Source: Desulfosudaceae bacterium (GTDB lineage Bacteria; Desulfobacterota; Desulfobacteria; Desulfobacterales; Desulfosudaceae). Taken from it: a DNA stretch of 64,000 nucleotides. Under the pieces are notes generated by a model that did not search any database, was not told the origin of the DNA, and saw only the letters and a program-made list of their open reading frames with translations. Positions within the stretch are counted from its first letter, which is position 1. Each line of letters begins with the position of its first letter. Made by a program: the position numbers and the translations under genes. Positions 4,621-45,627 of this stretch are shown here, in pieces. The DNA lies in assembly GCA_963674745.2 (NCBI GenBank), contig CAXXDV010000003.1:1120001-1184000 (forward strand), in the 5' to 3' direction.

Positions 4621-4990
4621 ACCGCTTTGCTTGAATTTTACTGGCGTTTGGGCGCGGATATCGCGGAAAAGCAGAAAAACGCCACCTGGGGCAGCGGCTT
4701 TCTCAAGCAGCTCAGCAAAGACCTGATGGCAGAATTCCCTGATATGAAAGGGTTTTCCCGGAGAAATCTGGAAATCATCAGGAGATGGTATCTCTTTTAT
4801 TCTCAGGGGGATGCAAAAGCGAAGCAGCCTGCTTCGCTTTTGCGGCAACAGCCTGTTGCCAAATTGTTTCAAATTCCCTGGTGGCACAATGTCGTCATTA
4901 TTCAAAAATGCAGCACCGTAGAACAAGCCCTGTTTTATGTCCAAAAAACCGTCGAGTACAACTGGTCGCGCAGTGTGCTGATCCATCAAA
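4621..4990 (+). pseudogene. Internal fragment of a DUF1016/YhcG paralogue
   Basis: Highly similar to 14236-14580 but lacks the RBS, about the first 33 codons and the whole C-terminal nuclease domain. Confidence 0.85.
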
Positions 4991-5054
4991 AGGAAAAATA
5001 CGTAAGGTAAGAAGTTACAGATGAGGTATTGCGGGAATCCCTAAAGACCTTTTG

Positions 5055-5423
5055 CTAAAGGTCTTTTTTCATCCTGGTTATTGTATTTATCAAATCGGGC
5101 ATGTGGTCCTTGCAGATGGAAAAAACGATTTCGGCATTCAGGTCAAAATAATGGTGGCTGATAATGTCGCGCATTCCCATGACGCCTTTCCAGTCCATTT
5201 CCGGATATCGACAAAGAAGTTGTCCGTTTGAGACTTTATCAAGGTTCTTTACGCTTTCGCCGATGGCGATCAGCATCATGCAAATGGCGTCCAGTTTATC
5301 AATACCCGATTCTGTTGAGAGGAAATCATCCGAGGAATTAATCCCCTCGAATCTTCGCGTAATGCGGTTTGAGGCAGTAATAATCTGATTGAGAATTTCT
5401 TCAACAAGGTCTCTATCAAACAT
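5055..5423 (-). CDS. HepT-like (DUF86) HEPN ribonuclease toxin
   Basis: IGESVK, W-x5-RDIISHHY (R-x4-H); overlaps the upstream MNT gene. Confidence 0.9.
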   Translation of the reverse strand: MFDRDLVEEILNQIITASNRITRRFEGINSSDDFLSTESGIDKLDAICMMLIAIGESVKNLDKVSNGQLLCRYPEMDWKGVMGMRDIISHHYFDLNAEIVFSICKDHMPDLINTITRMKKDL

Positions 5424-5721
5424 ACACGGCCTCTTGATCGATACGCATTTTTAAAAAAGCATTCATTTTTTTGCGGTAATGAACAATATCGACCTTCCTT
5501 TTATATTCATTTTCGAGTTCTTCTTTAATATGGACAAGTGAAAAAAGATCCGGCTTGCTCATTTTGACAACGATATCCACATCGTTAACCTGTGTAGCTT
5601 TCCCTCTTGCCAGAGAGCCAAAGATTCCGATACTGGTAACAAAATAACTGGCCTCAAAGTCGGCCTTTCTTTTCTTCAGAATTTTAAGACCTTCTTCCAG
5701 TGTTAGTGGCTGAACCTGCAT
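5416..5721 (-). CDS. Minimal nucleotidyltransferase (MNT) antitoxin
   Basis: IFGSLARG...DVDIVV...VDIV; GGAG RBS before ATG 5721. Confidence 0.9.
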   Translation of the reverse strand: MQVQPLTLEEGLKILKKRKADFEASYFVTSIGIFGSLARGKATQVNDVDIVVKMSKPDLFSLVHIKEELENEYKRKVDIVHYRKKMNAFLKMRIDQEAVYV

Positions 5722-5932
5722 CAATATTATCTCCAAGAAAGAATAACTAAATGATATTTATGTGATATTTGATTGTTTACCAAATTATTACAATGATAAC
5801 ATTGCTGAATATAAGTGCAATAGAAATCGACCAGCGCTCACAGGCGGTTGCCCTTACACATATTTGAGAACAGCCTCGAACCCCAAGCCGGTCGCCGAAT
5901 CCAGACCGCTGGAAGCCGTAATCAAAAACATA

Positions 5933-6079
5933 GAATTTCTCGGGATATGGGAGCATCTGAACAACCCCGTGTTTAAACCCGTCGAATTCGACGGGTTTAG
6001 AATCCAGGCCGGATTAAACAGCTTTACGCTCACACCCAAACAGTGGATAGAAAAAACCGGGGCCATAGGGATTATTTCC
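5933..6079 (+). pseudogene. KilA-N domain gene fragment
   Basis: EFLGIWEHLNNPVFKPVEFDGF...TPKQWIEKTGAIGI; near-identical to 9670-9816. Confidence 0.8.
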
Positions 6080-6243
6080 AATTTGCGAAACAGCCTGTTT
6101 CGCAATTACCCCAAAATGCGCAACGGTCCGCTTCACAATTAACAAAACAGATCGCTTCTCAAATCTATCGACGATTCCAAGAAATCTATCGTTAAACCCC
6201 AACCCCCGAAGCTTAAAACCCTGGCACCACACAAATAAACATA

Positions 6244-6550
6244 CTATCCTTGTTGATGCGTTTGAACCAGGTTGATGATGAATGCAATTAATTTTTCTGC
6301 TTTGGGTATCCAGGGCAATACCTGAGACTCATTAAAGCTGACAAAATCGATATAATCTCCTTCCTGCCGTCTTTCAAACAAGTCGTTATAGATTTGGGCC
6401 AAGTCCCTGGGGATTTTTACGGTTTTAACATATTGCTGATTAAAAAGGCTGCGTATGCCGGAATGCTTGGAAGAAGATTGATTGTCCAGCTTCCAGCGTT
6501 TCTTCAGCTCGTGCCAGGCGATGGGAAATCAGGTCCTGGTTCCATTCCAT
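6244..6550 (-). pseudogene. HEPN-domain gene with internal deletion and frameshift
   Basis: ATG overlaps the stop of the NT gene; MEWNQDLISHRLARAEETLEA, then in another frame SSKHSGIRSLFNQQYVK...LFERRQEGDY...QQG*; the expected middle helix is missing. Confidence 0.8.
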
Positions 6551-6864
6551 CAAATACGGATTCCTTCGGCTTCTACCTGCTGAAAAAATGGCATACCCTG
6601 GTAGCGTTCACTTTGCCATTCCCGGTGAGACCTGACAATAGCGGAGATAACCGTTCCGGCCTCCCATTCAATCTCATAGAGACGGTGACGAATGCGATCA
6701 GTGCGTTCATCATTCACAATACCATCTACCAGAACCAGCAGATCCCAGTCCGAATCCGGTCCGGCATCTCCCCGAGATCGGGAGCCGTAAAGAATAATCT
6801 CTGCCGTCGGTTCAACTTCATGAACTGCCTGCCTGATTTGAAGCAATAATCGGTCCTTATCCAT
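6550..6864 (-). CDS. Nucleotidyltransferase domain protein (MNT-type)
   Basis: ILYGSRSRGDAGPDSDWDLLVL. Confidence 0.9.
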   Translation of the reverse strand: MDKDRLLLQIRQAVHEVEPTAEIILYGSRSRGDAGPDSDWDLLVLVDGIVNDERTDRIRHRLYEIEWEAGTVISAIVRSHREWQSERYQGMPFFQQVEAEGIRI

Positions 6865-6995
6865 GGGTTTATACCCCTTTCTTCTTCATCTCGGTCAAGA
6901 CTGCCAGCGGCGGGCGCGATCCGGAATCCAGCCCCTCCAGGCCACAAACACACCCCTGAACAATCTTCAAGAAGGCAAAACACCCACCCCGGCCC

Positions 6996-7123
6996 GTAGG
7001 GGCAGGGCGTGCCGTGCCCAATATCCCCGTGGTCGCCCTCCATCGGGCAGGTACAGGGGCCTGCCCCTACATCGTCCCTGAACGTTTCCCCCGGCCCGTA
7101 GGGGCAACCCCCCGTGGTTGCCC
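6996..7123 (+). repeat. GTAG-REP cluster
   Basis: Three to four REP hairpins of the GTAGGGGC family. Confidence 0.85.
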
Positions 7124-7158
7124 TTGTTTTACCTGCATGATTTCCCGTTTGCTTATCC

Positions 7159-7659
7159 TTAAATCTCGTAACAATCGAGGATCTGGCCGAAGTAGAGCAC
7201 ATGGTAGTCTTTGTCCGGGTAAATCGACCGGTATTCATCTACCAGGTAGGTCGGGTCCATTTCATTTTTAAATACGATTTTGCATTCGAAATGAATGCCG
7301 GGCACATTGATAACAGGAGAAACCACTTTCTGGCTTTTACGGGTCGCCAGTTTACATTTTTTGTACTTGTTTACATCTTTACCTGATTTTGTTCCGCAGC
7401 ATAAAATCTTATCTTTCATGTTTTTCAGGGGGACCGAAACAGTAAAATCTTCAGCTTGTTCCAAAATGGAGAAGGTGTGCCTTGATTTACGCACGGCAAT
7501 CATCAATATCGGCTTTTGCCAGACAACACCGATCGTCGCCCAGCCTATGATCGTTGTGTTCATCTCATCGTCCGATTTAACCGTCAGAAAAGCCCCTTCG
7601 GCCATCTGTTTCATCACCTTTTCCGCAACCGCCATGTAATCTACCTGTTTAATTGACAC
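7159..7659 (-). CDS. Flavin reductase family protein
   Basis: GAFLTV, IGWATIG-W-KP, CGTKSGKDVNK, ECKI, DYHVLYFGQI; GGAGG RBS before GTG. Confidence 0.85.
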   Translation of the reverse strand: MSIKQVDYMAVAEKVMKQMAEGAFLTVKSDDEMNTTIIGWATIGVVWQKPILMIAVRKSRHTFSILEQAEDFTVSVPLKNMKDKILCCGTKSGKDVNKYKKCKLATRKSQKVVSPVINVPGIHFECKIVFKNEMDPTYLVDEYRSIYPDKDYHVLYFGQILDCYEI

Positions 7660-7855
7660 CTGGGCCTCCTGTGATTGTTTTTATTCTGTTTTTCCCTATC
7701 AGCCGGACTTTTGCTTTTTTTACCTGTTTATTCTCCATTAATACCAATCACGCCCATTTTCTGTCAATATTACCAGGGCCACCATAATCACCTGATCCCC
7801 CTGAACCCCAAACCTTAAACCCTGAACCCTGAACCCTGAACCTTCGAACCCCGAA

Positions 7856-7995
7856 CCGCCTGACCACTTTAAAAATCATCATTAATATGGTAAAGAAGAC
7901 AACAGCCTATCTAAAGGCCCAGGCTACGCCCACACCGCTCGCCGAATCCAAACGGCAGGAAGCCGTATACAAAAAAAACATGGAGGTTTTGGGTT
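7856..7995 (+). promoter_or_regulatory. Repeated promoter/structured leader, copy B (internal deletion)
   Basis: Same start and same end (AAAAAAAACATGGAGGTTTTGGGTT-ATG) as the copy at 13964-14133. Confidence 0.75.
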
Positions 7996-9546
7996 ATGGA
8001 CAATAAGTCGACGCCATTACGAATATTTATCAGTTCAGTACAAAAAGAGCTTGAACCCGAGCGGCTGGCTCTATTTTCGTTGTTGACTACCGATCCGGCG
8101 TTAAAGGATCACGTGGAGCCCGTCCTCTTTGAAATACTTCCTCCGCCACCCCGTCCAATGAAAAAGCCATATCTGAAGGCACTCAAGACCTGCCAGGCCT
8201 ATGTACTAATGATTGATCGGGAGTACGCCCCGGAGGGCACTGCCAAGTCACCCACACATGAAGAGTATGAGCTTGCCTGCTTGATGGGCATCCCGGCCCT
8301 GGCCATGATCAAGGGGAGACACGACACCGGCAGAGATCTTCGAACACAAGCGTTCTTTAAAACAATCCGGAAAGACGGTTTCACCTACAAACGGTTCATC
8401 GACCGGATCGACCTGAAAAAAGAAGTAGCAAAATGGCTGATCCAAGTGCTGAAAGATGAGTTCGGCATTGAGCCGCAACCAGGCCAGGAAGAAAGCAGTG
8501 AAGATACCATCGAAGCCGCATCCGCCTTTGAAACCATGCAGCAGGATGGCCTTTCATTAAGCGATCTGGATTTACCGGCTGCACGGCAATTGTATGCGGA
8601 ATTGACAGGCCAATCCGCTAAATCAGCAACCATGACGAAAATGTCCTCTGTCTTTCGGGTGCGCGGTTTGCTCTGGCGTAACGGCGACACCGGTGCTCTG
8701 CAACCCACCGCTGCAGGCGTCGTGTTTCTCGGCCAAAACCCCTGGCTGGCATATGCCCAATGCCAGGTGCTGGCGGATGCCTATTGGGATACGAAAGTGA
8801 CCTCAAAACCAAAGTCCCAGGCGAAGTTCACCGGCCCCATTGCATTCATAATCGAGGAACTCCTCGATTTCGTCCACAGCAACACGGCGCACCCGACCCG
8901 GGTTGTGGGAATAAACAATATTGAGCTTGACGAGTATCCGCGCCTTGCCGTGCGCGAGGCACTGGTCAATGCCTTCGCACACCGTAATTATGAGGATACC
9001 TCACGCAAAATCCGGCTTGAGATTTTTCGGGATCGTCTGGTTGTATCCAGCCCCGGCTATCCCCCCAGGCCGCTTACACTGGCCAAGCTCAGACGAGGCA
9101 AGTACGAATCGTGCAGACGAAATCCGGTAATTGCCGAATGCCTTGCCTCTCTGGATATGATGGAACAGCGAGGAACCGGGTTTGAAAGAATCCGTGCCGC
9201 CATGCAGGACCACGGATTGAGCGCGCACAAACTGGAACAGCGCGATGGTTATTTTAAGGTCATTCTGCCCGGACCGGACGGGGACTTTGACCGGCTCCGG
9301 ACGCCAGCCGATGCCCGGGGCCTGATCTCGCTGTCCATAGAGTCCCGGCTGAACGAACGGCAGAAACAAATCATGGTGCAGGTGCAGACCGAAGGCAGCG
9401 TGACGAGCGGGTGGTGCAAAAAGGTGTTCGGCGTGGCATATCAGACCGTGTATCGGGACTTGAAGGGGTTGCTGGAGGCAGGACTTGTTGAGCAGACGGG
9501 TTCGGGACGAAGCACGCGGTACATCATTAAATTAGCCGATGATTAA
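7996..9546 (+). CDS. DUF4062 + RecG-C-like (HATPase_c_4) ATP-binding domain + C-terminal wHTH protein
   Basis: RIFISSVQKELEPER; REALVNAFAHRNY, SPG, RNPVIA, EQRGTG; RDLKGL...GSGRSTRY. Confidence 0.8.
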   Translation: MDNKSTPLRIFISSVQKELEPERLALFSLLTTDPALKDHVEPVLFEILPPPPRPMKKPYLKALKTCQAYVLMIDREYAPEGTAKSPTHEEYELACLMGIPALAMIKGRHDTGRDLRTQAFFKTIRKDGFTYKRFIDRIDLKKEVAKWLIQVLKDEFGIEPQPGQEESSEDTIEAASAFETMQQDGLSLSDLDLPAARQLYAELTGQSAKSATMTKMSSVFRVRGLLWRNGDTGALQPTAAGVVFLGQNPWLAYAQCQVLADAYWDTKVTSKPKSQAKFTGPIAFIIEELLDFVHSNTAHPTRVVGINNIELDEYPRLAVREALVNAFAHRNYEDTSRKIRLEIFRDRLVVSSPGYPPRPLTLAKLRRGKYESCRRNPVIAECLASLDMMEQRGTGFERIRAAMQDHGLSAHKLEQRDGYFKVILPGPDGDFDRLRTPADARGLISLSIESRLNERQKQIMVQVQTEGSVTSGWCKKVFGVAYQTVYRDLKGLLEAGLVEQTGSGRSTRYIIKLADD

Positions 9547-9588
9547 TCTATCACTAATCTATCACCAAAACGCGAAAATCTATCACAT

Positions 9589-9623
9589 CCAAATCGGGGG
9601 ACAGTATCTGTCCCCCGATTTGG
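9589..9623. other. Perfect 16-bp-stem hairpin
   Basis: CCAAATCGGGGGACAG-TAT-CTGTCCCCCGATTTGG. Confidence 0.8.
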
Positions 9624-9624
9624 A

Positions 9625-10030
9625 ACCGATGACCTTATCCGCAACTGGTTGCGTATTCGCAATACGCTGGAATTTCTCGGGATACGGGAGCATCTGAACA
9701 ACCCCGTGTTTAAACCCGTCGAATTCGACGGGTTTAGAATCCAGGCCGGATTAAACAGCTTTACGCTCACACCCAAACAGTGGATAGAAAAAACCGGGGC
9801 CATAGGGATTGTTTCCTAAGCCGGACGCTATGGTGGAACGTATGCCCATAAGGATATTGCCTTTGAATTTGCGTCCTGGGTATCGGTGGAGTTCAAGCTA
9901 TATCTGATAAAGGAATCCCAGCGTCTTAAGGAATACGAGCGGAAAACGCTGGGCTGGGACATCCGCCGCAATCTTGCAAAAATCAATTATCGTATCCACA
10001 CTGACGCCATTCAACAACATCTCATTCCGC
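9625..10030 (+). pseudogene. KilA-N domain pseudogene fragment
   Basis: DLIRNWLRIRNTLEFLG...GIVS*AGRYGGTYAHKDIAFEFASWVSVEFKLYLIKE...NLAKINYRIHTDAI; in-frame TAA at 9817, no start codon. Confidence 0.85.
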
Positions 10031-10178
10031 AAACCCATGGGCGTTTCGGAATATGAACTGGTCCGGTCCCTGCCCGATGAATTGAAATCCGCTCTGCCGA
10101 CAATTGAGCAGATCGAAGCTGAATTTGACCAGAGCGGGGATAGCATTTGATCTGGTTAATCGCGGCTCAATAAACCCG
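10030..10178 (+). pseudogene. Duplicated 3' end of the DUF1016 gene plus downstream flank
   Basis: Near-identical to 15060-15208. Confidence 0.9.
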
Positions 10179-10224
10179 GGAACAACCCTGAAACCCCGAA
10201 CCTCAAACCTCAAACCTCGAACCC

Positions 10225-10368
10225 GTAGGGGCAACCCCCCGTGGTTGCCCGGAACCGTGCAGGCACGGCAGCCTGCCCCTACATCGTCCCTGAACGCTTC
10301 CCCCGGCCCGTAGGGGCAACCCCCCGTGGTTGCCCTTCATCAGGGCGGCCACAGGGGGCCGCCCCTAC
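10225..10368 (+). repeat. Two GTAG-REP doublets
   Basis: Same consensus as 1611-2100. Confidence 0.9.
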
Positions 10369-10569
10369 AACGCAATCCCGAACCCCAAACCCACCTTCTT
10401 CGTCACCCCGGACCCCGATCCGGTATCCAGATCTCCCGGCCACAAACACCCACCTGAACGTGTTTTAAGAAAGCCAGTCAAAATACCCCGCTCCCCTTAA
10501 CCACATAACCACTTAACCCCTTAACCACATAATCACATAACCACTTAATCACTTTAAAACCTTCATCCG

Positions 10570-11130
10570 CTATAGCGGTATGTCTTCATCATCATCCTCT
10601 TCCCGTATTTCCGCCAATGTCTCTTCCGCCTGCCGGGCCACATCCACATCATCATCCCCGGCCAGTCTTTCCAGGAATTCTTCAGGCGTGTCCGGGTTTT
10701 CCGCAAGGGCAAACCGCACAGACGGGTCCGACCGGCTGACCAGCCTTTGGCACAGCCACGATTTTTCACAGATCTCGTTTTCATCTGTAAAATCATCCAT
10801 ATTGTTTGCCACCGCGATTAAAATGGCACGGTCATCGGTGTCCATATAGGTCTCCAGATCCCGTCGCGTCATGTGCCTTCTGGCCCGCCTTGAATCCAAA
10901 ACAGCCCGCATCACCTCCGGAGAATCATTTTCAATCAGCATCCGCAGGGTCAATCGGGACAGGTGTTCCTTGTCAACCAGACAGACCAGGATTTCACTGT
11001 ATTCGGACCTGGCCAATTCATGATAAACATCACTGTATTCCGCCTTGTCTTCCAGCATAAAGGCAATTTCCTCCAGCCCCTTGTGCCCCAGCACCACTTC
11101 AACATCGTTAATAATCAATTTGGCATCCAT
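10570..11130 (-). CDS. Acidic helical-repeat (LRV/HEAT-like) protein
   Basis: VRFALAENPDTPEEFLERLAGDDDVDVARQA; GGAGGG RBS. Confidence 0.65.
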   Translation of the reverse strand: MDAKLIINDVEVVLGHKGLEEIAFMLEDKAEYSDVYHELARSEYSEILVCLVDKEHLSRLTLRMLIENDSPEVMRAVLDSRRARRHMTRRDLETYMDTDDRAILIAVANNMDDFTDENEICEKSWLCQRLVSRSDPSVRFALAENPDTPEEFLERLAGDDDVDVARQAEETLAEIREEDDDEDIPL

Positions 11131-11238
11131 TTTTTACCCTCCATTTCGTAGTTATCTCGGACATTTCTCGAAATTGCTTTAATCGTAGGGGCAACCCCCT
11201 GTGGTTGCCCTTCACCGGGCAGGCACGGGGGCCTGCCC

Positions 11239-13545
11239 CTACAAAAACCGCGACATTTGCGAACGACCCCGAACCCCGAACCCGATTCTGCTCTTCCCCG
11301 CCTGCTTTTCCTTTATCCCCGCCTCCTGTTCCAAGGCCGCCACCAGCATGTCGGCCGTTACACTGCCCTTGGGGTAAAAGGCATACCGGTCACGAACGAT
11401 CTTAAAATCCCCGGGCGCAAGACATTGCAGCCGGTCAAGCACACGGGCCGTTTGTTCATCCACCCCCCCGGGCACAACAGACCCCAACATGCGCTCGTAA
11501 AACAACCGATTGCCCTCGGGTGTCAAAAAATCAAAGCCGATCTTGTGGTTAAACCGTCGGATCGCGGCCGGGTCCACGCCGGTCAGCCGGTTGGTGGTGG
11601 CAATCAACATCCCGTTGAAGCGTTCCATGGCCGTCAGCAGCTCTGCGGTGTGGCTGACTTCCCATGACCGGCTCGCCGCCGCCCGGGGAAAGAGCAGGGC
11701 GTCAACCTCGTCCAGCACCAGCACCGCCCCTTCATGGGCCGCCCGTTCAAAGGCTTCCCGGATATACCGCTCGGTCATGCCCACATACGGGTCCAGCAGG
11801 TCGCTTAACCGCCTTACCAGCAGTTCCCGGCTCAAGTGCCGGGCCAGAAACCGGGCAAACTCGCTTTTGCCCGTGCCGGGCGGACCATGAAGCAGCAGGT
11901 TGAACCCGTAACGGCTCTGTTCGTAACCGGACACCTTCTGTAAATACTGGTCAAACTGCTCCGCCTGAAACAGCACTTCATCAATGTCGGCCGAAATATT
12001 TAACCCCTCCAGTGAATAACAGGCCTCCAGCCGATCCACCGCGGTCTTTTTCTCCCCGTCATTGATCAACGCCTGGTGGGCTTCCACGCTCCGCTGCACC
12101 GCCTTTAGCATGTCTGTGCGGTTCATTTGCCCGGTTTCCCTGGCCTTTTTCACGGCCAAATCGATCACCCCGGCATTGGTCTGAAACGCCTGGGCCAGCA
12201 TCCGCAGGTCATCCTGCCTGAAAAACCGCTTGCAGCGATGCCGGCGTACGATATTCTCCCACAACCGTTCCCGCTGCTGCCGGTTAAAGGGCTTGAAATG
12301 AATGCTGAAGGCAATCCGCCGCAAAACAGAGTCCTCAATACCCCCCATGTGGTTGACGATCCAGATGATGCGCAGCCCGGGCCGCTCCATCAGGTTGTTC
12401 AGCCAGCCCTTGTCCTGGGTCTCCCCCCTTCGCCACCAGGCATTCTCCGTATTCAGCACATTGTCGGCCTCGTCCATAATGAACACAGCCCCCTTGTCCC
12501 GGTTCATGCTGCTGACACAGGCATTCAAGATCAGCCGCCGCTGCTTGCTTTCATTGTCCTCAGAATTGTGCTGGACAATTTCATAAACCGGGTCGTCCAG
12601 GTACCCGGCCAGCCCCCTGGCAAAACTGGTTTTGCCAGTGCCCGGCGGACCGTATAACAGGATATGGGTGGCCGAAGCCGTTTTCTGCCCGAGCAGACTC
12701 AGCACATGGGCCACATCCCCGACAGGAATAAAATAGTCTTCCAGGTCCGGACCGGATGCCCCCTTTACCCGCTTCAGGTTTTTTTCTTCCAAGATGTTGG
12801 TATTGCCTTTTTCCAGAAAACCTTTCATCTCATCGCTTAGTTGAAACCCATTACTGCCAAAACGACTGAAACCGGATTCAACCAAACCGGCCGGGAGCAA
12901 GGTCTTCGTTAAGGCCGCGTTGATATCGCTCCGGGTGACAGCCATAATCGTGGCCAAATGACCCAGCCCCTGAAAGCAAAGGGTCTTTAAATGATTGTCA
13001 AAAAATTCTTCAGGCCCGGAAAAGACATCAACCACAAAACAGAACAGGCACAACTCGGTTTCCAGGTCGCTTAAGCTGAAGATTTTCTGAAGATGCAAGA
13101 TGCTTTTTTCAAGGTTGGACACTTTGCCTGCGGCCAGATCACGCCCGGTCTGCCGGATAACCGCCGTCACAAATTCGACAAAATCCCCGGCTATCCACCG
13201 GTTCCCCGCCCGGTTTAAAATCCTGAATATCTCCCTGCCATAACCCGAGATGTTTCCCTGCTCGCACCGCAGCTCATCCATGTCTTCCTGCCGGGTTTCC
13301 ACCGGAACCCGCGAAACCACAAATTCCCCGATTTCAAGCATGCGGTCCCCGGCAACCCAGCAGACAAACTCCACAGCCTCCTGGCTTATCGACAACCGCC
13401 TTTCCATCAGCCGCAATAAATAGTCACAGCACTTTTTCACCACAAACTGCGCGTTTTCATCCCGGGCTTCATGCGGCGAAAACTCGATTGAAAAGCAACC
13501 CTCTTTTTTCATCAATTTCTTCCGTCTCCTCTGAAAACCATTCAT
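11239..13545 (-). CDS. Tandem (double) AAA+ ATPase with a long N-terminal domain
   Basis: GPPGTGKT/MDEAD and GPPGTGKS/LDEVD, ATTNR...AIRRF, C-terminal RIGF; GGAGG RBS. Confidence 0.9.
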   Translation of the reverse strand: MNGFQRRRKKLMKKEGCFSIEFSPHEARDENAQFVVKKCCDYLLRLMERRLSISQEAVEFVCWVAGDRMLEIGEFVVSRVPVETRQEDMDELRCEQGNISGYGREIFRILNRAGNRWIAGDFVEFVTAVIRQTGRDLAAGKVSNLEKSILHLQKIFSLSDLETELCLFCFVVDVFSGPEEFFDNHLKTLCFQGLGHLATIMAVTRSDINAALTKTLLPAGLVESGFSRFGSNGFQLSDEMKGFLEKGNTNILEEKNLKRVKGASGPDLEDYFIPVGDVAHVLSLLGQKTASATHILLYGPPGTGKTSFARGLAGYLDDPVYEIVQHNSEDNESKQRRLILNACVSSMNRDKGAVFIMDEADNVLNTENAWWRRGETQDKGWLNNLMERPGLRIIWIVNHMGGIEDSVLRRIAFSIHFKPFNRQQRERLWENIVRRHRCKRFFRQDDLRMLAQAFQTNAGVIDLAVKKARETGQMNRTDMLKAVQRSVEAHQALINDGEKKTAVDRLEACYSLEGLNISADIDEVLFQAEQFDQYLQKVSGYEQSRYGFNLLLHGPPGTGKSEFARFLARHLSRELLVRRLSDLLDPYVGMTERYIREAFERAAHEGAVLVLDEVDALLFPRAAASRSWEVSHTAELLTAMERFNGMLIATTNRLTGVDPAAIRRFNHKIGFDFLTPEGNRLFYERMLGSVVPGGVDEQTARVLDRLQCLAPGDFKIVRDRYAFYPKGSVTADMLVAALEQEAGIKEKQAGKSRIGFGVRGRSQMSRFL

Positions 13546-13632
13546 TTTTTTCCTCCCCGTTATGCCGAAGAATTTTCAAGGCAAAAAAACTATCAGCCTG
13601 ATTGTTTGATCTGGGAAGATAATAAAGGAAGG

Positions 13633-13653
13633 TCGTTCCATAATACGGAACGA
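13633..13653. promoter_or_regulatory. Candidate WYL operator, site 1
   Basis: Perfect TCGTTCC-N7-GGAACGA; on the minus strand TGGAAC-N10-TATTAT points to the AAA ATPase gene. Confidence 0.65.
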
Positions 13654-13963
13654 AAATTCATTTTGAGGAAAAGCACGTCACCACTCAATTTTCTAACACA
13701 GCCATCCCGGCCAGCTTTGTCCCGAACTCGACCCGGTAATCCGGCATCCAAAAAAAATGTCATATTCCTCGTCATCCTGGCCTTTGCCCCCGTCATGCCG
13801 GACCCCGATCCGGCATCCAGCTCTACCGGCCACAAACGCACACCTGAACAATCTTCAAGAAGGCAGAACTCACGGTAAAACCCCGTTGGGGCAACCCCCC
13901 GTAGTTGCCCTTCACCTGGACAGGCACAGGGCCGCCCCTACACATTTGCGAACGGCACCCGAA

Positions 13964-14133
13964 CCACCTGACCACTTTTAAAATCACCACTAATATGGTA
14001 TAGAAAACAACAGCCTGCCTAAAGGGCAGGGGTTTTGTTATAAATGACCAGGTTGGCGACACAACGCCCACACCGGTCGCCGAATCCAAACGGCAGGAAG
14101 CCGTAAACAAAAAAAACATGGAGGTTTTGGGTT
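13964..14133 (+). promoter_or_regulatory. Repeated promoter/structured leader, copy C (complete)
   Basis: Three hairpins (CCTGCC/GGCAGG, GGCGAC/GTCGCC, ACGGC/GCCGT), then an A-run and GGAGG RBS. Confidence 0.75.
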
Positions 14134-15180
14134 ATGGCAAAAGAGATAATCACAACCAAAGAATACCGCGACTGGCTGACCGATATAAAACGGCGCGTCC
14201 GGAGTGCTCAACTGAAAGCGGCCACGGCGGTCAATACAGCTTTGCTGGAATTTTACTGGAGTTTGGGCGCGGATATCGCGGAAAAGCAGAAAAACGCCAC
14301 CTGGGGCAGCGGTTTTCTCAAGCAGCTCAGCAAAGACCTGATGGCAGAATTTCCTGATATGAAAGGGTTTTCCTACAGAAATCTGCGGGCGATCAAACAA
14401 TGGTATCTCTTTTATTCCCAGGATAATACAAAATGGCAACAAGCTGTTGCCATTTTGGCCCGGATCCCATGGGGGCACAATCTGGCGATTATCTCCAAAT
14501 GCAGCACCGTAGAACAAGCCCTGTTTTATGTCCAAAAAACCGTCGAGTCCAACTGGTCGCGCAGTGTGCTGATCCATCAAATCGAAAGTGATTTGTTTGC
14601 CCGCAGCGGCAAAGCAATCACCAATTTTGACCAAACATTACCTGCCCCGCAGTCTGACCTTGCCCGGGAGATTATCAAAGACCCGTACAATTTCGATTTC
14701 CTGACACTCACCGAAGATTACACCGAGCGGGAACTGGAAAAGGGCCTCATTGACCATGTCACCAGGTTTCTGTTGGAGCTTGGCGCGGGTTTTGCCTATG
14801 TGGGAAAACAGGTTCCTCTGCAGGTGGGCGAACGGGAGTTTTTTCTGGATTTGCTGTTCTACCATACCCGGCTGCATTGTTATGCCGTTATTGAGCTGAA
14901 GGTCTCGGAGTTTGAGCCGGAGCATGCGGGTAAACTCAATTTCTACATTAAGGCCGTTGACGAGCAACTGCGTCAAGACGGCGACAATCCGACTATCGGC
15001 ATTCTGCTTTGCAAGGGCAAAGACAAGGTTGTGGCTGAATATGCCCTGAGCGATATCCACAAACCCATGGGCGTTTCGGAATATGAACTGGTACGGTCCC
15101 TGCCCAATGAATTGAAGTCCGCTCTGCCTACAATTGAGCAGATTGAAGCTGAATTTGAGCAGAGCGGGGATAGCATTTGA
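14134..15180 (+). CDS. yhcG: DUF1016 / YhcG family PD-(D/E)xK nuclease domain protein
   Basis: YWSLG, GFS-RNL, PWGHN, KDPYNFDFL, FLLELGAGFAYVG-Q, DLLFYH, IELK, PTIGILLC. Confidence 0.92.
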   Translation: MAKEIITTKEYRDWLTDIKRRVRSAQLKAATAVNTALLEFYWSLGADIAEKQKNATWGSGFLKQLSKDLMAEFPDMKGFSYRNLRAIKQWYLFYSQDNTKWQQAVAILARIPWGHNLAIISKCSTVEQALFYVQKTVESNWSRSVLIHQIESDLFARSGKAITNFDQTLPAPQSDLAREIIKDPYNFDFLTLTEDYTERELEKGLIDHVTRFLLELGAGFAYVGKQVPLQVGEREFFLDLLFYHTRLHCYAVIELKVSEFEPEHAGKLNFYIKAVDEQLRQDGDNPTIGILLCKGKDKVVAEYALSDIHKPMGVSEYELVRSLPNELKSALPTIEQIEAEFEQSGDSI

Positions 15181-15404
15181 TCTGGTTAATCGCGGTTCAA
15201 TAAACCCGCGAACAGCCTCGAACCCGAACCCGGAATAAGACTGGCCCCATTCCCCGTCATGCCGGACCCCGATCCGGTATCCAGATCTGCCGGCCACAAA
15301 CGCACACCTGCACATGTTTTTAGAAAACCAGCCGAATTTCCCCGCCCCCTTAACCACTTAATCACCTAAACACATAATCACATCTTAAAAAAAATCCCCC
15401 AAAC

Positions 15405-37640: not shown

Positions 37641-37654
37641 GTTATTCTGGCTTC

Positions 37655-37761
37655 GTAAAAAGTCCAATATCTGCGTTGCGCTGCATCTCTCGGAATTTCA
37701 CGTACTCTTATGTACGCTGCATTCCTCGAGATTTGCGACGCCTTGATCTTAAACTTTTTAC
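37655..37761. repeat. ~107 bp imperfect palindromic MITE-like element
   Basis: Ends GTAAAAAGT...ACTTTTTAC; internal TCTCG/CGAGA and CGTAC/GTACG pairing. Confidence 0.55.
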
Positions 37762-38010
37762 TTTGCCATCCCTATTTTGTTCTTTTTGGTTTCTGTATCT
37801 TTTGTCCTTATTGCTGTTGGAAGCACGGGCAAGCTGTCGCTTTGCCCGTGGCACCCAAATAAGTGTTTTTGGCTCTTAAAAAACGTGCAGCCGTTTTTAA
37901 AATGTCCGGCAGATCTGGATCCCGGATCGGGGTCCGGGATGACGAGGAATGTGGTCAATTTTATTCTGGATCCCGGATCGGGATCCGGGATGACGTGGAA
38001 TGGGGTCATT

Positions 38011-40590: not shown

Positions 40591-40828
40591 AGGGAAAAAG
40601 TTTCAGGGTGTTAGAGTTTTAAGGTTTTAGGTGTCGGGCACGTAACTTCCCTCTTTTCTCTTTGTTGAATGACGGTTTTCTCCGTTATGTTTTATTATTA
40701 CCATGTTCTTTGAGGCGGCTCAACAGTTCCTCAATATTGAATGGCGTTACCCCCGGATCCAGGACCTTGTCCGGGGTGGGGTTGCCGGAAAGGCAGATTA
40801 TCTAATGTAAATAAGATATTTCATAAAC

Positions 40829-40849
40829 TTGTTCCATTAGGCGGAATGA
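40829..40849. promoter_or_regulatory. Candidate WYL operator, site 2
   Basis: TTGTTCC-ATTAGGC-GGAATGA, upstream of the AddB-like gene. Confidence 0.5.
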
Positions 40850-40929
40850 AAAGACGGATAAATATATCTGGATTCCGGCTTGGGGGCAGGGGTGACGAGG
40901 AAATGATGTTTTTTTTTGGTGGTTTATCT

Positions 40930-41283
40930 TCAGTCTTTTATCCACTTGAAATATACGCAGCCGATTCTTTTTTCTCCATTTTCATAGCCTTTAATCGTAT
41001 AGGTCGCTCCGGAAAAGTCGATGGATTCGTAAATTTTGCCATGTTCAAAAAAATCGGGACCATGGGGGCATTTTTCTTCTACGCAACCACAGCCGATATA
41101 TCGAAGACGGCGTTGACATTTTCTGATTTGAAACAGTTTTTCTACCAGTTCCGGTTGATAATGGGCAATGATCATTTTGACTGTTCTGGCCATTATTAAA
41201 GGGCAGTCGCGAATGGCCATTTCCAGTACCAGTTGGAATTTTTCTTCGTTTTCAAATCCTTCATATTGGTTACGGGTGTTCAT
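40930..41283 (-). CDS. Hypothetical Cys/His-containing protein divergent from the WYL gene
   Basis: GGAGG RBS; 117 aa; IGCGCVEEKCPHG. Confidence 0.55.
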   Translation of the reverse strand: MNTRNQYEGFENEEKFQLVLEMAIRDCPLIMARTVKMIIAHYQPELVEKLFQIRKCQRRLRYIGCGCVEEKCPHGPDFFEHGKIYESIDFSGATYTIKGYENGEKRIGCVYFKWIKD

Positions 41284-41374
41284 GGGGGCCTCCGTTTTTA
41301 TGGATGGGCACCCACAAGGGGTGCCCCAACGTGATCTTGCGTTCTGCGTCTTGCAGAAGGTGCCAGGGGTCGGT

Positions 41375-41420
41375 TTGACAAAAACAATGTTGCACGCTAT
41401 TGTTCCATAATATGGAACGA
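41375..41420 (+). promoter_or_regulatory. WYL gene promoter overlapped by candidate operator site 3
   Basis: TTGACA(41375)-17-TATTGT(41398); TTGTTCC-ATAATAT-GGAACGA at 41400-41420. Confidence 0.7.
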
Positions 41421-41445
41421 CAAATCATTTTTTCAGGGGGAATGT

Positions 41446-42441
41446 ATGCCGAGGAAAAAGTCCGATAGGACCCATGGTGAGAAACTGATGCAATTGTTCG
41501 GTGATTTGTATTTTGCCAGAAACCGCCGATCCATGATCGAACTGTCTGAAAAGCTGGGCTGTTCCAAGCAGACCGTCAAAAGGCTGGTTGATGATATTTC
41601 GCGCTCCTATGTCCAGATTGAAGAAATAAGGGAAGGCAGGAAGAGCTATTATCAGATCAAGCGCCCGGCCGGTGAAGGTAAAGCCTTGAGTATTTCACCC
41701 TCAGAGCTGACCATGCTTTACATGTGTCAGTCGTTTACACGGCACCTGTTGGGTGACGAATTGTTCCAGGAGTCTGAAAAAGCGATACAGAAAAGCTGCA
41801 TTCTGGCCTCTGGTGGGGGCGGGTCGGAGCATTTTGATGTGTTTCTGCCCGGCACCATCGATTATTCGCCCCGGCAGAAAGACATCCGTCAGTTGATGAA
41901 AGCCATGGAAGAGAAGACCGTCTGCAAAGTTATCTATAGAAAGCCCTGGGAAGAAACCGTCAAGACGTTTTATATCAAACCGTATAAACTGTTTTCTTAT
42001 AACAACGCCCTGTATTTACATGCGGGTATGGCCCGATATCCGGGTTCAAAAAAGACGGCCTTTAAGTTTGATCCGCTGCTGGCCGTGCATCGACTGGAAA
42101 AAGTGACATTGACGGATAATCAATATGTTTTCCCCAAAAACTACAATTTTGGAAAACACTTTAACCAGGAATTCGGCATTATCAAGCAGGATGCCTTTAA
42201 AGTCAGGGTTGAGCTTACCGGTTATGCTGCTGCTTATGCCTGTGAACGACGGTTCAGCCCGGATCAGAAGGTAACTAAAAAAAATGATGGCAATCATATC
42301 CTGACGTTTACAGCTTCATCAGAGCCGGAAGTCCTGGCATGGATTTTGTCGTTTGGTGATGAGGTCAAGGTGCTGTCGCCGAAATGGCTGGTTGACGATG
42401 TTAAAGAGGCGGCTCAGGCAATCATTAAGCGGTATGAGTAG
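41446..42441 (+). CDS. wHTH-WYL-WCX transcriptional regulator
   Basis: ELSEKLGCSKQTVKR HTH; IKPYKL...ALYL-A; LAVHRL; WILSFGDEVKVLSPKWL. Confidence 0.92.
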   Translation: MPRKKSDRTHGEKLMQLFGDLYFARNRRSMIELSEKLGCSKQTVKRLVDDISRSYVQIEEIREGRKSYYQIKRPAGEGKALSISPSELTMLYMCQSFTRHLLGDELFQESEKAIQKSCILASGGGGSEHFDVFLPGTIDYSPRQKDIRQLMKAMEEKTVCKVIYRKPWEETVKTFYIKPYKLFSYNNALYLHAGMARYPGSKKTAFKFDPLLAVHRLEKVTLTDNQYVFPKNYNFGKHFNQEFGIIKQDAFKVRVELTGYAAAYACERRFSPDQKVTKKNDGNHILTFTASSEPEVLAWILSFGDEVKVLSPKWLVDDVKEAAQAIIKRYE

Positions 42442-42524
42442 GTTCGTTGAATTTTCAAGTCGGGTAAAGCCCGTCATGAATTTCTTTTATTACTTCTACG
42501 TTACTTTCTAAAATATTCTGCAAG

Positions 42525-42558
42525 TGTGACCGGATCTGTCACAGGTTTATGGTAGAGT
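42525..42558 (+). promoter_or_regulatory. TGTGAC-N7-GTCACA palindrome next to an extended -10
   Basis: TGTGACCGGATCTGTCACA-N6-TGGTAGAGT. Confidence 0.55.
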
Positions 42559-42813
42559 TACAACAATCAACTCAAGGGGATGTTTTAGAGTGTTAAGGTT
42601 TTAGCGTTTTAGGGTTATGAGGAATGGAGCCAATTTTATTCTGGGTTTCGGGTCAACCCAGGATGCCGAGACAGGGGGGGCTCAGGAAATATAGGTATTG
42701 AAAATGATTAAGCGCGTATATAAGATTAACCTTTAATAAAAGTAATGTATTTTAATGATTTATTGACCGGGCCAGGGTCCGGGTGGAACAACTCATTGAG
42801 GAGGGAATCAAAA

Positions 42814-43866
42814 ATGACCAGGGATTTGGTGAAAAGTGCGGATTCAGCAAGCGACAGGGGCCAGCTTCTTGTTTATGAAGTGGAAGACGGCCGCATAAAA
42901 ATTGATGTGCGATTGGAGGATGAAACCGTCTGGCTGACGCAGAAGCTGATGGCTGATCTGTTTCAAGTAACCGTTCCGACAATCAATGAGCATATAAAAA
43001 ACATATTTGAGGAAGGGGAGCTTATCCCTGAGGCAACTATTCGGAAATTCCAAATAGTTCAAAAAGAGGGACAGAGAAACGTAACCCGTACAATTGATCA
43101 TTATAATCTGGATGGTATTATTTCAGTCGGTTACCGCGTCAAAAGCCGGGTGGCCACCCGTTTTCGCATCTGGGCGACACAGCGCCTGCGCGAATATATC
43201 GTCAAGGGATTTATCTTAAATGATGAGCGGCTGAAAGAGCCGGAAGGTGGGCGGTACTTTGAAGAGTTGCTGGCCCGTATCCGCGATATCCGGTCTTCGG
43301 AAAAGGTTTTCTGGCGCAAGGTCCTGGATATTTATGCCACCAGCATCGATTATGATCCCACGGTGGAAATCTCTCAGAAATTCTTCAGTCAGGTACAAAA
43401 TATGATGCACTGGGCCGCCCATGGCCACACGGCGGCGGAACTGATTTATGAACGCGTCGACGCCTCGCAGACCAACATGGGGGTGACCAATTACCCGGGC
43501 AGTAAACTGCTCAAGCGTGATGTGGAAGTGGCCAAAAATTACCTGAACGAAAAAGAACTGGATCTGCTTAACCGGATCGTGACCGCTTACCTTGAAGTGG
43601 CTGAAATTCAGGCGTTGAACCGCAACCCCATGACCATGGCCGATTGGATAGAGCGCCTGCACCAGTTTCTGACAATGACCGGCCGTGAACAGTTGACCCA
43701 TGCCGGGACAATAAGCCATGAAGAAGCACTTCAAAAGGCCCATGAGGAATATGAAAAGTTTCGGGAAAGGCGGTTGGCGGAACCGTCCGAGGCGGAAAAG
43801 CACTTCATAGAGGCGGAAAAGAAGTTGAACCAGATTGAAACGGCCAATAAGAGCGGCGGTAAATAG
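42814..43866 (+). CDS. rhuM: Virulence RhuM family DNA-binding protein
   Basis: ETVWLTQ-MADLF, HIKNIFEEGEL, YNLD-IISVGYRVKS, FRIWAT, IRDIRSSEK; GAGGAGGG RBS before 42814. Confidence 0.92.
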   Translation: MTRDLVKSADSASDRGQLLVYEVEDGRIKIDVRLEDETVWLTQKLMADLFQVTVPTINEHIKNIFEEGELIPEATIRKFQIVQKEGQRNVTRTIDHYNLDGIISVGYRVKSRVATRFRIWATQRLREYIVKGFILNDERLKEPEGGRYFEELLARIRDIRSSEKVFWRKVLDIYATSIDYDPTVEISQKFFSQVQNMMHWAAHGHTAAELIYERVDASQTNMGVTNYPGSKLLKRDVEVAKNYLNEKELDLLNRIVTAYLEVAEIQALNRNPMTMADWIERLHQFLTMTGREQLTHAGTISHEEALQKAHEEYEKFRERRLAEPSEAEKHFIEAEKKLNQIETANKSGGK

Positions 43867-43954
43867 CACGGGCAATTTTTGGTTGGCCCGGGGTAGGCGT
43901 TTGTGGGTTTGGGGTTCGGGGTTCAGGATGACGAGGAATTGGGGCAATTGGGAA

Positions 43955-44066
43955 GGGCAACCACGGGGGGTTGCCCCTACGGGCCGTGGTGGGCGTTTGT
44001 GGGTGTTGTAGGGGCAGGCCTTCGTGCCTGGCCTGATGAAGGGCAACCACGGGGGGTTGCCCCTAC
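43955..44066 (-). repeat. GTAG-REP cluster (orientation reversed relative to the left arm)
   Basis: GTAGGGGCAGGCC...GGGCAACCAC...CCCCTAC on the + strand. Confidence 0.9.
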
Positions 44067-44227
44067 GGGTCGGGGTGAACACGTGGGGGAGCCACACGGG
44101 TGACCATACGGGAGTTTGTGTCCCGCCATTATTACCTTGACATATTTCGCGGGACGATCTAATACTTGCCGGTCTATAGGGCAAGTTGAAACTTATCATT
44201 AACACTCAAAAAACGGGGGTAATAACC

Positions 44228-44554
44228 ATGGCAGAAGTAAAAGGATTGAATAAACCGGTAAAGTTAAAAGCGGATCTGGCGGCGTTGCTTGGCGCTGACG
44301 CACTTCCCCGTACGGAAATAACCAAGAAACTGTGGGATTACATCAAGGCCAACAAGCTGCAGACAAAGACCGTAAACGGCAAGCCGGAAAACGGTGGAAA
44401 GAATATTGTGGCTGATGCCAAGTTGCTTAAAATATTCAACAACACCAAAGTGACCACCAAAAGCGGCAAGGTGGTGGATTTTACGGGATTAAAAGAAGGC
44501 CAGACGATTGATATGATGCAGCTGGCTTCGGTTGTGAGTGCGAATATTGAGTAG
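44228..44554 (+). CDS. SWIB/MDM2 domain protein
   Basis: LAALLG, PRTEITKKLWDYIKANKLQ, I-ADAKL. Confidence 0.88.
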   Translation: MAEVKGLNKPVKLKADLAALLGADALPRTEITKKLWDYIKANKLQTKTVNGKPENGGKNIVADAKLLKIFNNTKVTTKSGKVVDFTGLKEGQTIDMMQLASVVSANIE

Positions 44555-44702
44555 AAGGTTTTAGAGTTTTAAGGTTTTAGCGTTTTAGGGTTTTAGGTGG
44601 TTAAGTTTGCTTCGGCATTCTGGCCGGTTATCTTAAAACACGTTCAGTGGTTTCTTTATGTTCAGTAGGTCCGGGCCTTGGATCGGTGTCCGGGGTGTCG
44701 GG

Positions 44703-44840
44703 GTAGGGGCAGGCCTTCGTGCCTGACCTGATGACGGGCAACCACAGGGGGTTGCCCCTACAGGCCGTGCAAAGCAACCACAGGGGGGTGCCCCTACGGG
44801 CCGAGGAAACACGTTGGCAACCACGGGGGGTTGCCCCTAC
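44703..44840 (-). repeat. GTAG-REP cluster
   Basis: One doublet plus partial REP hairpins. Confidence 0.85.
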
Positions 44841-45090
44841 AGGTTGGGGGAAAAAGGGCGGCCTTATATTCACTGATAATCAAATCAAATAAATCACGGC
44901 CAGGGAGGGCTGAGTGAATTTTTCTAAGCACGATTCTCCATTTTTTGGCATAAGTAATACGAATTCTTGAGGTGCCAGATTGGCACCTCAAGAAAACAGG
45001 TCGGGGTGGGCGAAATCAGTGCGAGGTTTGGAGGTCGCAATTTGCGACGTCCAAATAAATAATAATTTTAAATGATAAGGGAAATCAGTC

Positions 45091-45627
45091 ATGGATGACA
45101 TTGTGCCGGTTGAAATAATTGCGGGAAATATTTTTATAATCAGGGGTGAGCGGGTCTTGATTGATCGGGATCTAGCAAAATTATACAATGTTACGACAAA
45201 ATTGTTAAATCAGGCCGTATCGAGAAACGAGCAGCGTTTTCCCGCAGACTTTATGTTCAGGCTTTCAAAACAGGAAAAGGATGAACTGGTCACAAATTGT
45301 GACCGGTTAAATTCATTAAAACACTCTTCTTCTCTGCCGCGAGCATTTACCGAACAAGGTGTGGCCATGCTGTCCAGTGTACTGAATAGTGAACGGGCGA
45401 TTGCCGTTAATATTCAGATAATGCGGACCTTTACGAAGCTTTGTCAGGCGATTTTGAGTAATAAAGACCTGAGAAAAGAGTTGATGGAGTTAAAGCAGTT
45501 CACGGAAGAACGCTTTAGTATTGTATTTGAAACACTGGACCAGCTTCTGGCGGCTGAATACAAACCGCCAAAACAGATTGGTTTTACCGTAAAAGAAAAA
45601 CAACGCGCGTTGCATAGGCCAGAATGA
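45091..45627 (+). CDS. ORF6N domain DNA-binding protein
   Basis: IRGERVLIDRDLAKLY, NQAVSRN-RFPADFMF, AFTEQGVAMLSSVLNS, IMRTF, KQIGF. Confidence 0.92.
   Translation: MDDIVPVEIIAGNIFIIRGERVLIDRDLAKLYNVTTKLLNQAVSRNEQRFPADFMFRLSKQEKDELVTNCDRLNSLKHSSSLPRAFTEQGVAMLSSVLNSERAIAVNIQIMRTFTKLCQAILSNKDLRKELMELKQFTEERFSIVFETLDQLLAAEYKPPKQIGFTVKEKQRALHRPE

Follow-up and report, generated by a model that had tools for sequence, protein, structure and literature searches.

Palindromes inside four gene families

The DNA considered here is a stretch of 64,000 nucleotides (nt) from a Desulfosudaceae bacterium (GenBank assembly GCA_963674745.2, contig CAXXDV010000003.1, positions 1,120,001 to 1,184,000 of the forward strand), referred to as a whole as the window, and its subject is a set of DNA palindromes that are translated in frame within genes of the DUF1016/YhcG, KilA-N, RhuM and ORF6N families. 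A Pfam scan of the open reading frames (ORFs) of the window places these genes in a defence island that runs from ~2 to 45.6 kb of the window. A first-pass annotation, made from the sequence alone, had listed six palindromes in the four families, and all six are present in the sequence as written. In ORF6N, RhuM and KilA-N genes the palindrome is conserved at the level of the DNA, is symmetric through its centre and covaries with one helix of the encoded protein. In these three families it is probably the cognate site of the gene's own protein. The genes and their palindromes are as follows.

14134-15180: intact DUF1016/YhcG gene; PF17761 (DUF1016_N) 5e-42 and PF06250 (YhcG_C, PD-(D/E)XK domain) 6e-67; PADLOC PDC-S02 4e-157
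14429-14457, plus strand: DUF1016 palindrome in that gene, in frame, 13-base-pair (bp) arms, 3-nt loop; codes TKWQQAVAIL
4555-5010: DUF1016_N gene fragment, N-terminal domain only; a pseudogene piece
4813-4843, plus strand: DUF1016 palindrome in that fragment, in frame, 15-bp perfect arms; an extra unit ahead of the smaller homologous 4845-4861
4845-4861, plus strand: short palindrome GGCAACAGCCTGTTGCC, counterpart of the 14429-14457 core (QQPVA vs QQAVA)
10028-10132: short C-terminal DUF1016 piece
5762-6142 and 9649-9819: two KilA-N gene fragments, 92% identical to each other; the second has a frameshifted continuation in 9886-10056
5974-5999, plus strand: KilA-N palindrome, perfect over 26 bp, centre GAATTC; codes FKPVEFDGF; in a gene fragment whose KilA-N homology spans ~5924-6079
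9711-9736, plus strand: second copy of the KilA-N palindrome, the same perfect 26-mer, in fragment 9649-9819
42745-43866: RhuM gene; PF13310 (Virulence_RhuM) 2e-112 over residues 97-344; PADLOC PDC-S05 2e-143
42973-42990, plus strand: RhuM helix codons 77-82 (VPTINE), whose residues predict half-site bases
43035-43059, plus strand: RhuM palindrome, in frame, 12-bp arms with one C.A mismatch; codes ATIRKFQIV
45091-45627: ORF6N gene; PF10543 1e-29 over residues 14-97; PADLOC PDC-S05 1e-57
45199-45213, plus strand: ORF6N helix codons 37-41 (KLLNQ); Gln41 predicts a TCAC half-site
45284-45308, plus strand: ORF6N palindrome, in frame, 12-bp arms with one T.G mismatch; codes ELVTNCDRL; TCAC-type half-site

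The assignment to four families holds directly for DUF1016, RhuM and ORF6N, which are named by Pfam, the domain matches of the RhuM and ORF6N genes lying over the curated cut-off. Both KilA-N copies are fragments; the one that was scanned (5762-6142) has no Pfam match at E<=0.01, and the family is named through a full-length relative of ~273 amino acids (L094) that is 79% identical over the fragment and matches PF04383 (4e-25) and PDC-S22 (8e-140). Since the sites at 5974 and 9711 lie in two copies of one gene fragment, they represent one palindrome that was duplicated. All four families match PADLOC single-gene defence candidates: PDC-S02 for DUF1016, PDC-S05 for RhuM and ORF6N, and PDC-S22 for the KilA-N relative. 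Each is a single gene in its own right, and the four have a design in common; the shared system that the first-pass annotation proposed goes beyond what these data show.

Conservation, symmetry and a predictive helix

Relatives were collected by searching 401 genomes from the phylum of the window with each of the four families, and for the 30 best loci of each family, own locus included, the alignment position of the gene's top hairpin was compared. This hairpin maps to a shared position in 28 of the 30 DUF1016 loci (L009 and L023 are without a hairpin of at least 9), 22 of the RhuM loci (7 have no hairpin of at least 8 and one is shifted), 28 of the ORF6N loci (L073 scores 7, and the hairpin of L075 lies elsewhere) and all 30 KilA-N loci. 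When codons were exchanged among identical amino acids, with 200 shuffles per gene, the mean hairpin score of the homologous segment dropped from 11.0 to 3.9 for DUF1016, from 9.0 to 3.2 for RhuM, from 11.5 to 4.1 for ORF6N and from 14.2 to 4.3 for KilA-N, with p<=0.01 in 27, 13, 27 and 27 of the 30 genes, respectively. The element is found well beyond the phylum. A KilA-N profile scan of one genome per species returned 591 relatives, and in the best 80 of these, which come from Bacteria and Archaea and are 62-84% identical, the same codons score at least 9 in 64 and at least 12 in 54. Scores of at least 9 were likewise obtained in 66 of 80 RhuM loci from metagenomes, in 47 of 80 ORF6N loci on viral contigs (found with an alignment as query, a single-protein query having given only one locus) and, at the homologous position, in 27 of 40 more distant DUF1016 genes. 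At the palindrome position, DUF1016 relatives differ in the number of tandem units, from one up to three or more; yhcG of Escherichia coli K-12 has three tandem palindromes directly after its RLFYLFFQ motif, the best of which was reached by 0/300 shuffles.

The first-pass annotation had allowed that relatives might be no more palindromic than synonymous shuffles, or that the segment might be invariant and its symmetry a coincidence of fixed codons. Neither is the case, as the segment scores 9-14 against about 3-4 in shuffles, and there are 43 distinct palindromes among those best 80 KilA-N relatives and 59 distinct hairpins among the RhuM metagenome loci. Its remark, made without an exhaustive scan, that none like them were noticed in the housekeeping genes stands only in part. 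About 12 perfect palindromes lie in ordinary genes elsewhere in the genome, and the two that were followed are not kept: that of a DUF2804 gene is retained in 0/8 relatives (mean score 4.0) and that of a CDP-alcohol phosphatidyltransferase gene in 2/29 (mean score 4.7).

The symmetry is maintained by paired changes in the two arms. With windows centred by protein alignment and not by the palindrome, 95.5% of cells are paired in KilA-N (108 rows, 104 distinct) against 85.5% after shuffling, 150 cells are changed on both sides against 37, and the covariation score is 0.287 against 0.105. The corresponding figures for RhuM (106 rows, 98 distinct) are 89.5% against 67.9%, 307 against 85, and 0.645 against 0.231. 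In both families 0/500 shuffles scored as high, so the arm-to-arm covariation that had been suggested as a check is far above the shuffled level. Compensatory change is seen in 8/16 pairs of KilA-N and 12/13 pairs of RhuM, and sliding the partner column by 1-3 brings pairing down to 20-67%. These paired changes obey a reverse-complement codon rule and alter amino acids, as in the KilA-N codon pairs Pro CCC/Gly GGG, Pro CCT/Arg AGG, Leu CTG/Gln CAG, Val GTG/His CAC and Ser AGC/Ala GCT. A single ORF6N DNA core yields the peptides VTNCD and RSQIVTS, with VSQNVIP from viral contigs, and is thereby read in at least two frames. It is the symmetry of the DNA, not the peptide, that is conserved, and the peptide pays for this symmetry. 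In the protein alignments, conservation of ORF6N is lowest in the stretch that the palindrome encodes, and the KilA-N counterpart is a variable patch between conserved flanks, although within it F64 and F69 are invariant and E68 is nearly so. The first-pass description of the segment as the most variable one is therefore apt for ORF6N and for the length-variable DUF1016 stretch, and only partly so for KilA-N.

The pattern of pairing also bears on the form in which the element is read. A selected stem in messenger RNA (mRNA) is expected to contain many G.U pairs and few A.C pairs. Among 1560 KilA-N cells there are 16 G.T, 32 A.C and 41 other mismatches, excluding one outer pair that is T.G in 53/104 rows (Arg AGA vs Lys AAA). 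Codon choice enforces the symmetry up to the centre: the KilA-N Glu68 codon is GAA in 106/106 genes against 65% elsewhere in the same genes, the Phe69 codon is TTC in 101/107 against 32%, the ORF6N Gln beside the centre is CAA in 65/67 against 49%, and the central ORF6N Asn is AAT in 13/13. Because pairing is strictly Watson-Crick without a preference for G.T, and because the symmetry runs through the centre, the element has the features of a double-stranded DNA site rather than an mRNA stem, which points to a symmetric dimer that reads duplex DNA. According to an AlphaFold model of a full-length KilA-N relative (mean pLDDT confidence 70; residues 1-135 at 84-94), the palindrome codes for a loop and helix 66-75, making a protein-level cause of the symmetry unlikely. 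The idea of a beta-hairpin or 'sense-antisense peptide' was rejected on the same model, in which there is no symmetric peptide hairpin. A comparison of the KilA-N family profile with solved structures gave nothing useful (best E 0.77).

The bases of the half-sites are predicted by residues of one helix. Among 92 distinct ORF6N genes, of which 76 have a palindrome score of at least 7, the helix residue that follows Leu-Asn (LN-x-AV) is associated with TCAC when it is Gln (57/57), with TCGC when Glu (6/6), with TTCC when Lys (4/4) and, in 9 genes, with TGCC, CGCC and relatives when Arg; the Glu type is present in both reading-frame subfamilies (L081 and L084). In RhuM (107 rows), residue 82, placed opposite this ORF6N residue when the two are aligned by eye, accounts for 93% of the entropy at one base of the site: Glu goes with CGG..CCG in 35/42, Leu, Met or Gln with AAG..CTT in 35/39, and Arg or Lys with GCA..TGC in 15/17. 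RhuM residues 77-78 predict bases 5-8, and the top five of 214 variable columns are 82, 77, 78, 81 and 75, the median column explaining 0.19. The top four of 167 columns in KilA-N (107 rows) are 38, 37, 41 and 42, inside modelled helix 36-45, with Asp38 accompanied by G in 33/33 and Tyr38 by A in 27/28. In phylogenetically independent pairs of RhuM genes, taken on a tree of the C-terminal domain, Glu/CGG is concordant in ~9.9 of 13 with none opposite (p 0.002), and Leu/Met/Gln/AAG in ~12.2 of 16 (p 0.0005), with one opposite in 2/200 pairings; Arg/Lys/GCA is concordant in 4/5, too few for significance.

These observations suggest an arrangement in which small, horizontally mobile candidate anti-phage genes would each carry a dyad-symmetric double-stranded DNA site in their own codons. 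The predicted reader in ORF6N, RhuM and KilA-N is the N-terminal DNA-binding domain of the encoded protein, which would sit on the site as a symmetric dimer, and protein and site would have diversified together into specificity types. As the site lies inside the gene, recombination cannot separate the protein from it. That each protein would bind its own palindrome, and with what effect, is what we infer from the sequences. Two candidate uses appear most likely. The protein may repress its own expression by a roadblock inside the gene, or the site may be a cognate 'self' tag that would restrain the defence protein on its own DNA, as aba does for BstA. An element of this kind is present in the DUF1016/YhcG genes as well, where it numbers one to three or more copies in tandem and may or may not be read by their own protein.

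Relics, fragility and competing explanations

Palindromes of the same types also occur in the window outside the genes and gene fragments listed above.

44964-44994: bare palindrome of ORF6N type, arms perfect over 14 bp, half-site of TGCC type, 112 nt upstream of the ORF6N start
45027-45055: bare palindrome of ORF6N type, half-site of TCGC type, a single mismatch, 50 nt upstream of the ORF6N start
6083-6105: DUF1016-type palindrome, AKQPVSQ in one frame; adjoins the end of a KilA-N fragment; arms match the L003/L008 type

The flanks of the first two are not ORF6N-coding, and both are of non-cognate types, the resident ORF6N protein being of the Gln/TCAC type; they look like relics or sites of other proteins. 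Extra copies upstream of the ORF6N start are present in 7/30 ORF6N loci. An array of ORF6N operators was considered and rejected, as most of the extra upstream palindromes lie in truncated ORF6N fragments. Several such fragments, beside intact genes, have an end at the palindrome (query 1-75 in L087, 18-84 in L088, 26-74 in L081, 55-73 in L090 and from 63 in L072). The second ORF6N gene of the genome (C1:949264-949767) lacks an internal palindrome, and its helix is of the Glu/TCGC type. A bare palindrome of this Glu type stands 50 nt upstream of the Gln-type gene of the window, and one paralogue may act on the promoter of the other. Many ORF6N matches in the phylum, L073, L074, L076, L078, L079 and L086 among them, have one in-frame stop (TAA, TAG or TGA) and may be split genes, pseudogenes or read-through genes. 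The palindrome at 6083-6105 is a relic at a rearrangement joint.

DUF1016 matches often end near residue 100-110, and yhcG, matched in 4465/5426 E. coli genomes and covered to at least 80% in 3349, is variable at its palindromes in the three alleles that were read. Allele H21 (O111:H11 strain 8D) has lost units 2 and 3 to an 80-nt deletion and is annotated as frameshifted; in allele H19 (91.7% identical) the arms of unit 1 differ by changes that compensate each other; and the homology of allele H26 (Ec387) ends inside the right arm of unit 3, beside a small transposase gene. Alleles H27-H29 match over the same nt 1-406 as the Ec387 allele. The palindromes are fragile points at which units and gene ends are lost, as a side effect. 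In three E. coli strains (L417-L419), yhcG directly follows gltD, without the gltF-yhcA-F block of K-12. A length polymorphism of yhcG is reported in use for typing O157:H7 (PMC3514354).

The palindromes are not dispersed through the genome. With arms of at least 12 and loops of at most 6, 104 perfect palindromes are present in 5.55 Mb, 8 of them in the 64-kb window, and those of the genome are mostly terminator-like or members of dispersed repeats. Of 162 centre-perfect palindromes in the genome (score at least 9, loop 0-1), seven have an ORF6N-type or KilA-type centre: four in the window, two of ORF6N type on C1, and a short CGAATTCG-centred one at C3:930942. Stray palindromes with GTGAC/GTCAC or GTCGC motifs like those of the ORF6N site are also found at C3:40932-40960, C1:425798-425826 and C1:1666210-1666242 (L375-L377), with no ORF6N or RhuM-N coding similarity within 240 nt.

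Several observations weigh against reading the palindrome as the cognate site of its own protein. In the three units of E. coli yhcG only the inner core is common, and each outer arm is self-complementary with a sequence of its own, a pattern more easily explained by base-pairing for its own sake than by a single fixed sequence to be recognised. The helix-to-site scan of 62 DUF1016 genes gave scattered columns and no clustered signal. For DUF1016, pairing for its own sake or arm-to-arm copying is a serious alternative. Variable arm positions in KilA-N stay symmetric even though the proteins are 62-84% identical. Most loci have only one internal site, and a single roadblock ~205 nt into the gene would give weak repression; the non-cognate type of the bare upstream copies leaves no operator array for the resident ORF6N protein. 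The aba element is described as non-palindromic and located at the gene start (PMC8585504). Helix and site lie ~50 nt apart and are therefore inherited together, and since the RhuM tree was built from the C-terminal domain, both would travel together if the N-terminal module were swapped. The mutual-information column scans are uncorrected for phylogeny. That the signal is concentrated on a few columns speaks against pure linkage, without excluding it.

The palindromes might, alternatively, be self-perpetuating and functionless, having arisen in a tolerant linker and being restored by template switching during replication, which copies one arm onto the other, so that covariation would appear without selection on a site. 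Quasi-palindrome correction of this kind is a mutational process. Copying would yield the strict Watson-Crick pairing, and the bare copy at 44964-44994, which has stayed perfect amid a decayed gene, the outer DUF1016 arms that are self-complementary yet different between tandem units of one gene, and the sporadic perfect palindromes in ordinary genes are all in keeping with it. This explanation is nevertheless rather unlikely, as it does not account for the helix residues outside the palindrome that predict half-site bases, for codon-enforced symmetry at the innermost positions, which would form the loop of a hairpin, or for a fixed position in four families across Bacteria, Archaea and viral contigs when palindromes in ordinary genes are lost.

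A site of recombination or cassette exchange, a 'microcassette' at which gene halves or cassettes would be joined, inserted or swapped, is an improbable explanation. The truncated ORF6N fragments that end or begin at the palindrome speak for it, together with the yhcG allele without units 2 and 3, the Ec387 homology that stops in the right arm of unit 3 beside a transposase gene, the DUF1016-type palindrome adjoining a KilA-N fragment at 6083-6105 and the frequent breaks of DUF1016 matches; simple fragility, however, would also place breakpoints at palindromes. Discordance between flanks is not raised at the KilA-N palindrome, where the correlation of 0.52 at nt 204 is like that of neighbouring positions, the copies are not dispersed, and in the window ORFs that were scanned, the IS66 transposase aside, Pfam gave no recombinase (the neighbourhoods of other loci were not searched). 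The same undispersed copies and undisturbed KilA-N flanks, with the reading of the ORF6N core in different frames, tell against the hairpin-based diversification that the first-pass annotation had offered as one of its two explanations. The other, an operator that is part of the protein's own coding sequence, is favoured for ORF6N, RhuM and KilA-N by the covariation of helix and half-site, and finds no such signal in DUF1016. It is very improbable that the element is an in-frame mRNA hairpin that would slow ribosomes, recruit RNase or bind the protein as RNA. Stable stems of 12-19 bp are possible, and the outer KilA-N pair with T.G in about half of the rows speaks for this reading; elsewhere there is no G.U preference, innermost positions that cannot pair are kept symmetric, and the element survives changes of frame and persists in non-coding relics.

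Setting and comparison with known systems

The cognate-site reading gains from the setting of these genes, which is a defence island with the following content.

DUF4143 ATPase; DUF4062-HATPase_c_4 protein; AAA ATPase
DUF1016, then ADP-ribosylglycohydrolase and three HNH_2 genes
PLD-SNF2 helicase with Eco57I-type methylase; IS66; two GmrSD genes
UvrD and PD-(D/E)XK protein; WYL-WCX regulator; RhuM; ORF6N

Between the two KilA-N fragments, 7996-9546 encodes a DUF4062, HATPase_c_4 and helix-turn-helix protein with weak PADLOC matches to pAgo-associated and SIR2-type models (1e-12). The window has other palindromes as well. A perfect palindrome with 17-bp arms and a 3-nt loop at 9588-9624, ~100 nt upstream of the second KilA-N palindrome, is of none of the four types, and another with 10-bp arms lies at 12617-12638 within the gene for the AAA ATPase (11239-13545). 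Imperfect palindromes of the GTAGGGGC type, rich in GC, stand at 44690-44850 and 10100-10470; they are repeated and dispersed genome-wide, flank the region upstream of ORF6N too, and look like a family similar to repetitive extragenic palindromic (REP) sequences and separate from the in-gene palindromes.

In agreement with this setting, DUF1016 and RhuM are reported as neighbours of inversion-targeted restriction genes (PMC9881135), in an article whose main text, supplements aside, is without the word 'palindrom'. A LexA site associated with a rhuM gene has been validated by gel shift (PMC3998124); a link to LexA and the SOS response was rejected, as the site described there is a different one. 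Searches on ORF6N, RhuM, DUF1016/yhcG and KilA-N, and on palindromes that are coding, intragenic or in frame, turned up no account of these elements, which appear to be unreported in the searchable literature.

Of the uncharacterised genes that lie nested in restriction-modification and other defence loci, the four families belong to the commonest, and E. coli K-12 genes are included. Their palindromes are a rare case of a constraint on the nucleic acid that can be seen to dictate changes of amino acids, in Bacteria, Archaea and viral contigs alike, and they form a natural data set of candidate protein-DNA recognition pairs. For annotation, bare palindromes and gene stubs near these genes are to be regarded as relics of the same element and not as new repeats or switches. 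It is conceivable, though somewhat doubtful, that a general rule applies to mobile single-gene defence proteins, whereby an inseparable 'self' tag in the gene's own codons would restrain or localise the protein on its own DNA, with tag and helix co-diversifying into private specificities (Gln with A, Glu with C, Arg/Lys with G). If this were true, residue-to-base rules could be read directly from genomes.

Compared with known kinds of element, the in-gene palindromes do not have the many dispersed copies, independent of one gene family, of REP sequences, REPINs or MITEs (miniature inverted-repeat transposable elements). They do not tolerate G.U far above A.C or leave the loop free, as a conserved mRNA stem-loop does, and the discordant flank histories of a gix- or hix-like recombination site are not seen at the KilA-N palindrome. 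Binding sites inside coding sequence are known from the lambda ori iterons in gene O, lac O2 in lacZ and gal OI in galE. These are likewise dyad-symmetric protein-binding sites that are translated, and those of lambda O follow the N-terminal DNA-binding part in several copies. They are single, well-studied loci, an origin and operon operators, whereas the palindromes here characterise whole, widely transferred families, with reverse-complement codon covariation and many specificity types.

Rickettsia palindromic elements occur in genes. PARCEL repeats are likewise described as palindromic coding DNA (2010, PMC2996958). Both resemble the palindromes here as in-frame, translated palindromic DNA that has spread horizontally and varies in copy number; as described, they are dispersed repeats or mobile insertions in many unrelated ORFs, whereas here there is one homologous position per family and no dispersal. 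Perfect inverted repeats have also been reported in functional protein-coding genes of nematomorph mitochondria (2019, PMC6649704), where protein function and DNA symmetry are again kept at once. Those repeats are up to 284 bp long, numerous and confined to certain mitochondrial genomes, and the abstract of that report states no link to DNA-binding proteins.

In the palindromes here, the site lies within the gene of its predicted reader, as is expected of a self-site, and in this the closest likeness is to BstA, a KilA-N-like abortive-infection protein that is suppressed by a cognate DNA-based element, aba, overlapping the bstA start (Owen et al., 2021, PMC8585504). The aba element is described as 63 bp long, comprising 29 bp upstream and the first 34 bp of the gene, with terminal direct repeats and no palindrome. 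The palindromes here do not share this promoter-proximal anatomy with its start codon and direct repeats; they are 25-38 bp long, lie ~205 nt inside the gene and are family-wide in four families. Ultimately, BstA pairs a phage-defence protein that has a KilA-N-like DNA-binding domain with a short cognate DNA element overlapping its own gene, as is predicted for the palindrome families, and variant BstA proteins have variant cognate elements, as these families probably do.

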